Source: Eledone cirrhosa
Lineage: Eukaryota
Assembly: GCA_964016885.1 (NCBI GenBank)
Contig: OZ024743.1
Span: 104,532,001 to 104,596,000, forward strand
Direction: 5' to 3'
DNA: 64,000 nucleotides
The notes below the pieces were generated by a model. That model was not told where the DNA came from. It did not search any database and saw only the letters and a list, made by a program, of their open reading frames with translations. Both the position numbers and the translations under genes were made by a program. Each line of letters starts with the position of its first letter. Within the stretch, counting starts at the first letter, position 1. This document shows positions 33,281-48,744 of the stretch, piece after piece.

Positions 33281-34188
33281 ACGGAAAAAATGAAACGAAA
33301 TTTCATTTCTCACTCTTAGTACGGCTGTTACTTAAATATAAGTATGTATACGTACATACACATGTATACAGACGTACAGTAGTATGTATATATACATACA
33401 CACATGCACACATATATATATGTACGTATGGATTCACCGAACATTTATTATAATGCTCGGTGTGTTTGTAAACAAACATCCCGAATTAAGTCATACAGTG
33501 TCTAGCAACCATCGTTGCTCATTTGTTCAACACTGACAAAGGAACGCTGTACTAGTTTCAAGCTTATTAGCTATCGTCAACAACGTATACCTTCCTGCCA
33601 GATGATTGAACGTCTGAAAGCATAAACTTTCCCTATGCATATTAACGGCTGAATCCATACGTACATATATATATATATATGTGTGCATGTGTGTATATAT
33701 ATATATATATACATACTACTGTACGTCTGTATACATATGTGTATGTACGTATACATACTTATATTTAAGTAACAGCCGTACTAAGAGTGAGAAATGAAAT
33801 TTCGTTTCATTTTTTCCGTTTATCGTTTTCGGTACCCCGGCCGATTAACTCACTCGATATGCAAATTAGGCTGCTCGGCCGTTAATATGCATAGGTAAAG
33901 TATATGCTTTCAGACGTTCAATCATCTGGCAGGAAGGTATACGTTGCTGACGATAGCTAATAAGCTTGAAACTAGTACAGCGTTCCTTTGTCAGTGTTGA
34001 ACAAACGAGCAACGATGCTTGCTAGACACTACGGCTTAATACTGGATGTTTGTTTACAAACACACCGAGCATTATAATAAATGTTCGGTGAATCCATACG
34101 TACATATATATATGTGTGCATGTGTATATATATATATACATACTACTGTACGTCTGATTACATATGTGTATGTACGTATACATACTTA
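33281..34188. mobile_element. Retrozyme-like family E: minus partial unit joined head-to-head to a plus 1.2-mer
   Basis: 33281-33649 (-) and 33650-34188 (+, period 439); HHR 33941-33983 intact, HHR 33544-33586 has a C3U core change. Confidence 0.85.
33941..33983 (+). ncRNA. Minimal type-I hammerhead ribozyme (family E)
   Basis: ACGTTG-CTGACGA-TAGCT-AATA-AGCTT-GAAAC-TA-GTA-CAGCGT; stem I 6 bp, palindromic ACTAGT stem III, GUA triplet. Confidence 0.85.
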
Positions 34189-35090
34189 TATATATATATA
34201 TATATATATATATATATATATATATATATATGTATATATATATATATATATATATATATATATATATATATATCCCAAATACAAGATGCCTTCATAGAAT
34301 GTGACTGAGGTCATAGCGTTCGAGGAGTGATTGTGCTTTTAATGTTGTCAGGAAACTATTAGCAACAAGGACTTAATTCATATATTGATTGTACCTCTGA
34401 CTGTATGTCTGCATATATATATATATATATATATATATATATATATATATATATATATATATATATATATATATATATATATATATATATATATATATAT
34501 ATATATATATATGTATGTATGTGGTGTGCAGATATGTAAATATATCTATCTATCTATCTATCTGAATATATATATATATATATATATATATATATACAGA
34601 TATGTGTGTTTGTGGTGTCTGCATATATGTGAATAAATATATTCATATATCTGTATATATATACTTATATATATATATGCAATATATATGTATATATTCT
34701 GTATATATATTTATATATATTTATATATATATATATATATATATATATATATATATATATATATATATATATATATATATGTATATGCGTGTGTGTGTGT
34801 GTGTGTGTGCAAACACACATAAGTACAACATAAGTACAACATAAGTAGTGTGCATAATTGTGGGGGTTTGAGATAGGAAGAAGCAGACGAAAGACTAAAT
34901 GACAAGATGAGGGAGATGATGGGTAAAGGCAGAGAACGAGAGAGAGAGAGAGAGAGAGAGAGAGAGAGAGAGAGAGAGAGAGAGAGAGAGAGAGAGAGAG
35001 AGAGAGAGAGAGAGAGAGAGAGAGTTAGAAAGGCAACGAGAGAGGGATAGAGAGGTAGTAAGAGATATGGGTGGGACAAGGACATCATAC

Positions 35091-35183
35091 ACCAAACATT
35101 GAGTAGCAGTAGATCGACTGGAACTTTGCCAGCCGCTTCGGAGATGATATAATCTTGAAATTCTTTCGCACGAATTGCGAAGA
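35091..35183 (-). other. Candidate 93-bp host-gene exon
   Basis: Non-repetitive sequence with a TTTTTGTTTTAG acceptor and GTATGA donor on the minus strand; frame 0 reads SSQFVRKNFKIISSPKRLAKFQSIYCYSMFG. No homology recognised. Confidence 0.3.
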
Positions 35184-35419
35184 CTAAAACAAAAATTACA
35201 TAAATAGATAAACAAACAAATCAACTAACAAATAAATATAAAAGTAACAACAAGAAAATTACTAAAATAAAACTCCGTTGCTAAGAAACCAATGAGGATT
35301 GCAGCTTCTGTTTTGTATGAGTTGCTAAGCAGCACAATTTGGTTTAAGTTCTGTTTTAAACCATTTCCTTATTTATAAGTATTACGTTTATTATTACTTT
35401 TATTAACGGGTTAAGGAAA

Positions 35420-35890
35420 GACTAAGACTAGGCGCCTGGCATCTGGAATGTTGTCAGACCCTCACAACCCTCTACCAGTTATGCAATGCGGTCAGTGGAA
35501 ATTCCACGTTACTGTTATATAGAGGACTAATTGTGGAGAAAAAGATGATGTTCTCGGAGAAATTCTAAGTAGTCTGTTTCGGAGGACTTTCGGCCCGGGG
35601 TTTATGGATAATTTCTAGAAATCCCTAGCCTGGCAGTGCTACCGGGGGGCCAGTGCTGTCTGTCGAACCTGCCCGGGATGCATACAGAGCGACGAAACCG
35701 TTCTGCACGTACTCGCCCAGTGTCTGCACATTGCTGATATTAGGAGTTTCATCGAACAGCTAGTATCACGTGTAGGACGGATCCAACTATCGGCCGATTC
35801 TGTCGGAAATATGCCCCGCCACTTCCTTTTGGCCGGGAAAGGCAGACTGATTTCTCCTGTCTGGTGGCTATTGTGAAAGAGATTGTTATG
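35420..35890 (+). mobile_element. L1/Tx1-clade LINE ORF2 C-terminal fragment
   Basis: KSLAWQCYRG...TCPGC..SDETVLHVLAQC (CCHC knuckle)...LVAIVKE. Confidence 0.7.
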
Positions 35891-35979
35891 CGATAACAGT
35901 TATGGCATATACGCCTGTATGCTTGTATATAAGTTCTTATCGTTTATCAACATATTTTTTCACACAAAGAGCCTCGTTT

Positions 35980-46704: not shown

Positions 46705-46817
46705 AATAAACGAAGCTAAATTTTAAACATTTGACTTATTTATTTTACTTTATTTTATATATATATATATATATATATATATATATATATATATATATAT
46801 ATATATATATATATATA

Positions 46818-47275
46818 TAAGAGTGGGAAATGAAATTTCGTTTCATTTTTTCCGTTTATCGCTTTCGGTACACCCGGCCGATTAACCCACTCGATATGCA
46901 AATTTGGCTACTCAGCCGTTAATATGCATAAGGTAAGTAAATACGTTCAACAATCTGGCAGGAAGGTATACGTTGCTGACGATAGCTAATAAGCTTGAAA
47001 CTAGTACAGCGTTCCTGTGTTAGTGTTGAACAAACGAGCAACGATGGTTGCTAGACACTACGGCTTAATATGGGATGTTTGTTTACAAACACACCGAGCA
47101 TTATAATAAATGTTCGGTGAATCCATACGTACATATATGTGTGCATGTATGTATATATATATACATACTACTGTACGTCTGTATACATATATGTATGTAC
47201 GTATATATACTTATATTTAAGTAACAGCCGTACTAAGCGTGGGAAATGAAATTTCGTTTCATTTTTTCCGTTTAT
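46818..47275 (+). mobile_element. Retrozyme-like family E, 1.1-mer (period 416) in (TA)n
   Basis: About 40-bp terminal direct repeat; HHR 46970-47012; ATGCAAAT near 46896. Confidence 0.85.
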
Positions 47276-48189
47276 ATATATATATATATATATATATATA
47301 TATATATATATATACAATATGTTGAAAAGGTAACACACCAGAGAGAGATATACAGTGCGTTATCAATATGTGTTATATAGTTATAGAGGTATTTATTTAC
47401 GTTTTAATTTATATTTTTAATTATCGTGTCTATAGTCTGCCTTTCATAGGTTATAGATTCCATACACTGGTGGTTTTTTCCCCTGTTTTATTGATAACGC
47501 ACTGTATCTCTCCCTAGTGTGTTACCTTTTCAACATATTGTATTTTAAAGAGCTCAGGATTTCTTCTCCTTTGAGCACATTATTTACAGGGAATAGCGAG
47601 GACCTATGCCTCCGTTAATTTATCGTGATATATATATATATATATATATATATATATATATATATATATATATATATATATATATGCTACTTATAATTAT
47701 ATCATATTATTACCCCATGTATATTGGGTAGATGTATTTGTATTATCATTATTATTATTCTCATTCCTATCATGCTCATTTTCATATTCAAACTCTTGAT
47801 AAGGTTATATTTGTGCGGTTGAAGATAGATGTGTGTATTGTTGTAGGTGTATGTGTGTGTGTGTGTGCACACATATATACATATGCATAATGTACCTTTT
47901 GATTTTCCATTGTAACTTTAATGTTGGTAAAGGTATAATTATATTATATTACATTATATTATATATGATTCCTGATCTATATAACCACTTTTGTCTAGCT
48001 CTAGGTTTTTTTTGCTTTGGACTATATTTGTAATATGGTTCTTAATGTCACATACATCCTTAGTAATTTTCATTATATATTTTTATTATTTTTATTATAT
48101 ATTTTTGCAATACTTTAGTATATGTACACTCCATATTCTTCGGAGCTTCTGGCTTGTATCTGCCGTTATTACTTCTTGTTGTTTGAATT

Positions 48190-48227
48190 GCCCTGATGAG
48201 TCCTTAATAGGACGAAACATTGTCGGC
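48190..48227 (+). ncRNA. Canonical minimal type-I hammerhead
   Basis: GCC-CTGATGA-GTCCT-TAAT-AGGAC-GAAAC-ATT-GTC-GGC then AATAAA, at the 3' end of an AT-rich pLTR-like segment ending in (TA)n. Confidence 0.85.
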
Positions 48228-48288
48228 TAATAAAGACTTTTGATGTATTGAAGGCTTCTTTGTTTTACTCTCTTAATATATATATATA

Positions 48289-48744
48289 TGTATACGTACA
48301 TACATATATGTATACAGACGTACAGTAGTATGTATATATATACATACATGCACACATATATATATATATATATGTACGTATGGATTCACTGAACATTTAT
48401 TATAATGCTCGGTGTGTTTGTAAACAAACATCCCGAATTAAGCCGTACAGTGTCTAGCAACCATCGTTGCTCATTTGTTCAACACTGACAAAGGAACGCT
48501 GTACTAGTTTCAAGCTTATTAGCTATCGTCAGCAACGCATACCTTCCTGCCAGATGATTGAACGTCTGAAAGTATATACTTTCCTTATGCATATTAACGG
48601 CTGAGCAGCCTAATTTGCATATCGAGTGAGTTAATCGGCCGGGGTACCGAAAACGATAAACGGAAAAAATGAAACGAAATTTCATTTCCCACTCTTAGTA
48701 CGGCTGTTACTTAAATATATGTATATATACGTACATACATACAC
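48289..48744 (-). mobile_element. Retrozyme-like family E, about 1.05-mer (period 435)
   Basis: Different start point from the other copies; HHR 48496-48538 (-). Confidence 0.85.

Follow-up and report, generated by a model that had tools for sequence, protein, structure and literature searches.

What places a short, non-coding repeat with its own hammerhead ribozyme into (TA)n tracts, often as two copies joined head to head? The question is raised by a 64-kb stretch of the Eledone cirrhosa genome (contig OZ024743.1, positions 104,532,001 to 104,596,000; hereafter the window), which is contained in the 3.0-Gb assembly G000. An earlier note on this DNA had described four copies of a retrozyme-like unit lacking open reading frames (ORFs), and these were found at the positions and on the strands that it gave, each with a different 5' start. 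Of that note's reading, the retrozyme-like nature of the family, the permutation of its copies, their insertion into (TA)n and mobilisation by Penelope-like elements are supported. We propose that the unit is a non-autonomous retrozyme copied by a Penelope-like element (PLE) from both ends of one break, at two internal start sites, A and B, probably off a single circular RNA. As a whole we consider this reading moderately probable, and its parts differ in strength: mobilisation of the hammerhead repeat by a PLE is very probable, two-ended priming at A and B is likely, and a circle is slightly favoured as the template, with an uncut tandem RNA a possible but lesser candidate.

Arm ends and head-to-head pairs of the unit

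We mapped individual copies (arms) in 166 stretches (660 kb) of the 3-Gb genome, obtained by merging 215 loci; of the 271 arms found, 268 do not lie at stretch edges. Thirty loci were the best matches and the remainder were among the first pattern matches along C1; because loci were found by exact patterns or best matches, young, longer, ribozyme-bearing arms are over-represented. Phases are numbered on a natural 420-nt monomer (from L090), phase 1 lying directly 3' of the predicted cut. An exact 34-mer of the hammerhead core has 5,653 matches in G000 and its reversed control none, so that the hammerhead unit is not a chance pattern. The B site has 5,125 exact matches, a 24-mer upstream of A 19,363 and A itself 11,231, all lower bounds, with reversed controls giving 0 or 1; from these counts we infer that segments of the unit number tens of thousands. 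A degenerate hammerhead pattern gave 192 matches, and the 100 listed were all variants of the unit's own family.

Mapping of arm ends onto the unit, a check suggested by the earlier note, revealed 5' ends scattered round the unit and 3' ends mostly at two fixed points ~60 nt apart: 97 of the 268 arms end at A (phases 205–221) and 130 at B (phases 265–279, 108 of them exactly at 273). (TA)n follows the end in 72/97 arms at A and 103/130 at B, compared with 8/41 arms ending elsewhere, which mostly have no TA after them and are probably secondary breaks. In the window, copies 2 and 4 stop at A and copies 1 and 3 at B, ~60 nt further on, so the note's description of one internal end site running into (TA)n holds for the (TA)n and not for the single site. 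The longest UA runs of the unit (phases 127–136 and 150–161) are almost never ends, and A and B offer 3–5 nt; end sites are thus not picked by homology length, at odds with the simple UA-microhomology priming proposed earlier.

Among the 268 arms are 82 non-edge head-to-head pairs, consisting of 52 A+B, five B+B and one A+A pair together with 24 in which one arm ends elsewhere. Where both ends lie at A or B, the pair is therefore A+B in 52 of 58 cases, against 50% expected (independent choice, p 1.3e-10); two of these A+B pairs (L107) duplicate each other, as do two of the B+B pairs (L115). With a wider junction window the share is 55/60, and the position-ordered C1 sample alone gives 41/46. 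The 82 junctions divide into 32 with an overlap of 2–9 nt, 15 with 0–1 nt, seven with a longer one and 28 with a gap or filler. Among 47 ungapped junctions, an overlap of at least 3 nt occurs in 21, compared with 7% by chance; local alignment may inflate these overlaps. Copies 1 and 2 of the window form one such insertion, their arms abutting with a 3-nt overlap. Some of the 102 'unpaired' arms, a few in number, are artefacts of the self-complementary TA-rich part of the unit.

Arms measure from ~25 nt to many units and are partial tandems truncated to varying extents at the 5' end. To the nearest whole unit, 61 of the 268 count as zero, 148 as one, 47 as two and 12 as three or more. A length slightly above one monomer, which the note gave for three window copies, is not general, and the spread does not agree with cDNA copied just over once around a circle. 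5' ends are mildly in excess at phases 385–420 (p 0.03) and 60–90 (p 0.02, both uncorrected), where RNA structure may have stopped the copying. Partial tandems, variable 5' truncation, an inverted truncated copy and a tail that is often one-ended (here ~60 nt) are all features of PLE insertion.

The unit, its predicted ribozyme and the template

The unit is ~420–435 nt long, has no long terminal repeat (LTR) organisation or fixed 5' end and, read round, contains no ATG-started frame longer than 49–53 aa, in keeping with the ORF-less copies of the note. Its periods of 439, 416 and 435 nt were also recovered, as 427–439 nt in copy 2 (varying with TA-run length), 416 in copy 3 and 435 in copy 4. 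The 166 stretches contain 301 hammerhead cores, one type I hammerhead per unit, with successive hammerheads mostly 420–433 nt apart (111 spacings). All four window copies carry this hammerhead with its ACTAGT motif, and three cores are intact as previously noted, C3 being changed to U in copy 1. Helix I has 6 bp and a bulged extension, helix II has 4 bp closed by a U.U pair, and the 2-bp helix III lies within the palindrome ACUAGU, which is able to pair between two copies (-6.8 kcal/mol). Canonical metazoan type I hammerheads are described as working as dimers, and the minimal PLE hammerhead as having a helix II of 7–8 bp, a helix I of 4–5 bp and a dispensable helix III (Cervera 2014). By its predicted helices the unit's hammerhead is of the canonical metazoan type I and not of the minimal type that the note had assigned. 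An Rfam run on the window and on the motif did not match it.

One helix I pair is compensatory among 184 aligned rows (G.U in 142, U-A in 15, U.G in 14, broken in six), and changes in the hairpin neighbouring helix I preserve pairing. The predicted fold of the circular unit reaches -130.7 kcal/mol (z -7.1 against 60 shuffles), with 70% of positions paired and hammerhead helices I and II formed. The core is less diverged than the rest (58/2,206 vs 2,802/52,949), a difference that we discount because many loci were chosen by exact core match.

Tandem copies with two or more ribozymes occur, in arrays of up to 21 kb; the longest lies at G000:C1:51772395-51793780 (L104, L105, L213). In a 4.3-kb array (L103) exact cores occupy alternate units (842-nt spacing), which suggests later amplification of a dimer. 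Older, diverged relatives at 68–82% identity (L161 548-876, L222 811-1071, L199 2576-2734) indicate that the family has had several waves. In two comparisons with four sequencing runs each, one variant rare in run X1 reaches about half the depth in run X5, and small shares turned up in organisms B and C; as the kind of run is not on record, we give these no weight.

The predicted cleavage site is passed by 175 of the 227 arms ending at A or B, twice by 44 of them, and 144 crossings include no stop at phases 1–4. A pile-up of 5' ends at the site, the mark of a cut linear monomer, was looked for and rejected (phases 1–4, 0 vs 1.3 expected; phases 1–15, 8 vs 4.9, p 0.12). Since arms run through the cleavage site with no stop there, the template is not a cut linear monomer, which leaves a circle or uncut tandem RNA. 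At subfamily sites, paired arms differ in 13.6% of cases, compared with 47.4% for arms taken at random and 8.6% for repeats of the same arm. Paired arms have 21/249 rare alleles in common (10/35 pairs) and arms of the same subfamily 229/26,715 (204/3,939), p 9e-6; the rate of 8.4% is the same between paired arms as within arms, compared with 0.9% for same-subfamily arms. This fits an origin of paired arms from one RNA molecule or one source.

In the mechanism that we propose, read-through transcripts of loci with two or more hammerheads would self-cleave as ribozyme dimers, and the ~425-nt monomer would then be ligated into a stable, highly paired circle. A PLE protein, probably dimeric, would bind this RNA and cut both strands of a (TA)n tract, as published PLE biochemistry suggests: the purified Anolis Poseidon PLE protein is reported to cut and extend both strands, with two internal RNA start sites bounding the tail, and is predicted to be a dimer (Frangieh 2024, PMC11167929). 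One free 3' end would begin reverse transcription at A and the other at B, 60 nt downstream, in line with the observed ends, the stretch between A and B corresponding to the PLE 'tail'. The arms seen run variable distances, often past the cleavage site once or twice, which would reflect rolling round the RNA, and repair would join the two cDNA ends, through the observed 2–9 nt of microhomology or short filler, into a head-to-head pair. A single arm would remain where the other was absent or lost, and arms passing the site twice would be potential new source loci. More tentatively, a dimeric PLE may seat its two subunits at two fixed sites on one viroid-like hammerhead circle and roll from both ends of one double-strand cut. 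If true, this dimer-on-circle step would account for why all PLEs with an endonuclease have head-to-head copies and a tail on one side, and would keep making two-ribozyme source loci without a promoter or a fixed end.

Several points weigh against such a circle copied from both ends. In the published in vitro work, uncut RNA is the main PLE substrate, hammerhead cleavage is dispensable and start sites did not differ between strands (Frangieh 2024, PMC11167929), findings that favour tandem RNA as the template and do not themselves predict a strict A+B rule. The 4.3-kb and 21-kb arrays could supply uncut RNA. The antisense circle folds well too (z -4.6), and RNAalifold returned little consensus structure from 129 full rows (-1.9 kcal/mol), so that, with the alignment-wide consensus fold weak, the covariation seen is confined to helix I. 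A single pair gives 10 of the 21 shared rare alleles, subfamily-site differences are larger between paired arms than between repeats within an arm (p 0.002), and the window pair itself (copies 1 and 2) is unlike at 2 of 10 subfamily sites and has an indel of 2 nt; alleles could also come to be shared through gene conversion from one arm to the other, or through bursts off one source locus. Possible inflation of the junction overlaps counts here too, as does the finding that the unit has no significant sequence likeness to Hydra and Neptune termini, which means that the partner PLE is not named by sequence.

A rival that we regard as unlikely, if the most serious one, retains the same two-ended PLE insertion with an uncut linear tandem transcript from genomic arrays as its template, the hammerhead being weak or a passenger and the circle unneeded. 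All arm statistics fit it equally well and the arrays are present; PLE insertion in vitro is reported to be unaffected by hammerhead mutants (Frangieh 2024), 8 of 9 Xenopus retrozyme dimers are reported not to have cleaved, and the axolotl U.U type cleaved 22% as a monomer (PMC7229834), while the U.U pair and 2-bp helix III of the unit itself predict weak activity. Arms of three or more units are few, however (12/268), the helix I pair and the neighbouring hairpin keep their pairing through sequence change, successive repeats within an arm are as alike as expected from one template, and in coral, mussel and axolotl, retrozymes related to this one occur abundantly as circles (PMC7229834). Improbable, in our judgement, is a model in which head-to-head pairs form when a single cDNA, or an antisense template, primes itself or folds back, with the tail arising through endonuclease resolution. 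It would account for shared alleles and short overlaps; fold-back has been suggested for Adineta PLEs from palindromes at inverted junctions, and the tail has been attributed to endonuclease resolution (Craig 2021, PMC8557442). Because the unit is short and repeating, both arms cover the same sequence, and one-template copying can be tested against fold-back: a folded-back copy must lie inside the first cDNA, yet the arm reaching further 5' is A in 29 and B in 23 of the 52 A+B pairs (for example, A vs B reach of 1345 vs 284 nt and of 154 vs 847 nt). Nor are paired arms related in starting phase or correlated in length (rho 0.11). Neither arm lies consistently within the other, and this absence of nesting largely refutes the fold-back model.

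That the copies are 5'-truncated ends, or pseudo-LTR (pLTR) tandems, of an undiscovered autonomous PLE seems very improbable. PLEs are known to make pLTR tandems with hammerheads, Xenopus retrozymes are reported to resemble pLTRs, and our arms were read from just 166 stretches of the genome; yet the unit closes on itself at every phase across the 111 spacings, contains no frame above 53 aa, no significant match to three PLE proteins and no reverse transcriptase (RT) or GIY-YIG ORF, and the 102 unpaired 5' flanks have no common collinear upstream sequence, the PLE pieces within them varying in family, orientation and distance. The outcome that the earlier note had named as fatal to its own reading, terminal fragments of a longer RT-coding element, is accordingly not what the arms show, every phase continuing into the next unit. 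We give least credence to the form proposed in the note, in which Naiad elements make a single cDNA that goes little more than once around a circle, with UA microhomology as the primer. A majority of arms do round to one unit (148/268), and A and B each end in a short UA match; the broad length spread, the unused longest UA runs and the paired use of two sites speak against it, as do the nearby PLE pieces, which are Hydra-type and Neptune-type (the genome was not searched with a Naiad protein).

Penelope-like elements and other features of the window

The window contains three fragments of PLE endonucleases that match the C-terminal portion of one Hydra-type family, whose ORF (L236) contains an RT followed by an endonuclease, with the Hydra signature of DKT, a CxCX5C linker, CxxC and CxH; the family has a hammerhead and targets (TA)n. 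Its own two ends lie 66 nt apart, and one of each was found in 14/14 pairs (56 loci; 11 pairs called by script and three by eye, one a likely duplicate). A second, very young family, Neptune-type by its motifs, with a 1217-aa ORF and C-terminal CX4CxxC plus GIY-YIG, combines one short and one long end in 11/11 pairs picked from the match list; fragments related to it lie at 5272–5475 and 25164–25247 of the window. Assignment to these clades rests on motifs, as Pfam recognised neither of the two PLE ORFs. The retrozyme obeys the PLE end rule of this genome: a rule like A+B is kept in both PLE families, making it a property of the PLE machinery here.

Arm-to-arm mismatch is below 0.6% in 8 of 9 pairs tested for this very young Neptune-type family (one gave no alignment), compared with a median of 3.8% for the retrozyme (33 pairs) and 2–10% in 6 of 13 Hydra-type pairs that aligned. 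By this measure we rejected the young Neptune-type family as the main partner on grounds of age. The enzyme likely came from a (TA)n-targeting PLE with a C-terminal endonuclease; the Hydra-type family, which matches the retrozyme in age, is the strongest candidate, with older Neptune-type families, whose ends are also present here, as possible ones. The Hydra-type family has the same end rule as the retrozyme and a similar tail length and age, with no common sequence; the family of the Hydra-type fragment listed in Table 1 is a candidate enzyme donor, outside the unit. The Naiad mobilisation put forward in the note found no support. Naiads have an N-terminal endonuclease and a DKA motif and are reported to be without canonical hammerheads (Craig 2021, PMC8557442), unlike the window fragments and their families, which have a C-terminal endonuclease and hammerheads and lack DKA. 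Around the window's PLE pieces nothing supporting a Naiad was found, in a genome that was not searched with a Naiad protein.

The very young Neptune-type PLE is represented at L325 (G000:C3:131362000-131370000) by an intact ORF with an asparagine-rich insert, has 150 scored matches at 98–100% identity and forms tandem arrays on C28 with a period of ~4.1 kb; it is likely still active. Another hammerhead-bearing Hydra-type family is present in the window, including head-to-head pairs (21113–23904, 4719–5257, 17362–17654 and 33034–33130), with a longer tail (~95 nt), apparently on one arm only. In the flanks of L031, L087 and L125 lies a short, strongly palindromic repeat with two alternative (TA)n ends, in which no hammerhead was seen and which may be another non-autonomous PLE passenger. 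Retrozyme arms were also found head to head with an arm of another family that extends to its own end in (TA)n (L072, L087, L067, L106, L173), the partner in L072 being the Hydra-type family. Such mixed junctions may have formed from two RNAs copied at a single break; we rejected them as proof of partnership because resection or deletion yields the same picture. Likewise, the join of copy 4 to the adjacent repeat piece is either a mixed insertion or a later deletion.

Table 1 Features of the retrozyme and its surroundings in the 64-kb window
Feature	Position	Strand	Remarks
(TA)n target tract left of copy 1/2 pair	33213..33280	.	
Copy 1, left arm of head-to-head insertion	33280..33652	-	ends at B (with tail) into (TA)n; core C3 to U
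Hammerhead of copy 1	33534..33602	-	core mutated at 33580
Junction of copy 1 and copy 2 arms	33650..33652	.	3-nt overlap (microhomology)
Copy 2, right arm of same insertion	33650..34194	+	~1.25 units; ends at A (no tail) into (TA)n
Tail (stretch between A and B), read through within right arm	33762..33823	+	loose TA ends at 33823
Hammerhead of copy 2	33925..33993	+	type I, extended helix I, U.U-closed helix II, palindromic helix III
Predicted cut in copy 2	after 33977	+	from hammerhead consensus
(TA)n target tract right of copy 1/2 pair	34187..34273	.	
(TA)n tract before copy 3	46756..46819	.	second tract after copy 3 at 47273-47314
Copy 3, single arm	46818..47275	+	~1.1 units; ends at B; (TA)n both sides
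Hammerhead of copy 3	46954-47022	+	intact; predicted cut after 47006
Copy 4	48277..48744	-	ends at A, into TA tail of another hammerhead-bearing repeat end
Hammerhead of copy 4	48486-48554	-	intact; predicted cut after 48502
Piece of different repeat family	48746..49042	+	fixed 3' end in (TA)n; head to head with copy 4 5' end
3' fragment of Hydra-type PLE	29481..30332	+	endonuclease, pLTR with hammerhead variant, tail-less end in TA

Thirteen further hammerhead-like motifs, belonging to several families, are spread over the window (4809, 5071, 16678, 17012, 17125, 17548, 21298, 23799, 31277, 46655, 48193, 49131 and 56972), and the hammerhead at 48187–48231 scored 31.7 bits with Rfam Hammerhead_1, under the cut-off of 34. 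Non-PLE, LINE-like reverse transcriptase fragments lie at 11678–12286, 31763–32764 and 54917–55957, two of them with RVT_1. The window also holds a 4.2-kb TGG-rich minisatellite (41651–45885), a perfect inverted repeat flanking a TA run (13474–13569) and an abundant ~190-nt repeat, probably a short interspersed element, at 12398–12520 and about 15 other places.

Comparison with known systems

These results bear on how animal retrozymes move and on why PLE insertions take the form of inverted pairs with a one-ended tail. The retrozyme class is already known, the dependence of retrozymes on PLEs having been proposed before; earlier published support for it consisted of shared features, co-occurrence and pLTR likeness, and here a retrozyme bears the full PLE footprint in thousands of copies. 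In searches covering open-licence papers only, we found neither this family nor the A+B rule, no retrozyme with a PLE end signature and no count of the two ends of one insertion using different start sites on one template.

As described for metazoan non-LTR retrozymes (Cervera and de la Pena 2020, PMC7229834), the unit is short, ORF-less and AT-rich, with one type I hammerhead each, tandem copies, a highly paired predicted circle and co-existing PLEs, and axolotl HHR_Amex2 has the same U.U-closed helix II. At 150–400 nt those retrozymes are slightly shorter, and they lie in arrays, whereas the unit is mostly dispersed as arms of 0.5–2 units. Their circles have been demonstrated, whereas ours is predicted from sequence; in the text of that paper we found no mention of 3' ends that are fixed and paired, of inverted pairs or of (TA)n targeting. 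A preprint by Li, Clavereau and Pollet (2026, 10.64898/2026.07.22.740005) likewise treats animal retrozymes as non-autonomous PLE derivatives, on evidence that, as presented there, consists of co-occurrence and pLTR homology and does not extend to insertion ends; our unit has no detectable pLTR homology but a direct PLE insertion footprint.

Among PLEs, Anolis Poseidon similarly has two internal start sites bounding a tail and an AT-rich target with both strands cut and extended, but it is autonomous, its tail is 30–40 nt and its inverted pairs are left unexplained in the published account (PMC11167929). Hydra, Neptune and Naiad PLEs share with the unit partial tandems, an inverted 5'-truncated copy, a (TA)n bias and a tail that is often one-ended; unlike it they code for protein, and the one-end tail is noted qualitatively in that text and ascribed to endonuclease resolution (Craig 2021, PMC8557442), the tails in the present genome being 43–66 nt. 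For the in vitro PLE system that already exists, the A+B rule, which the retrozyme and two PLE clades follow, yields a clear-cut prediction, and a 425-nt RNA with two defined start sites would be a minimal trans substrate; if PLE mobilisation is general, the rule should hold in mussel, coral and axolotl retrozymes. In L1 twin priming, one RNA is primed from the two ends of the target break, which gives a 5' inversion joined by microhomology; the second primer lands at an internal site that varies, and the pieces have no overlap. Here, by contrast, the two sites are fixed, and the same sequence is copied into both arms. The unit has every sequence-level feature of a non-LTR retrozyme, with predicted cleavage and circularity, and works like a PLE insertion.

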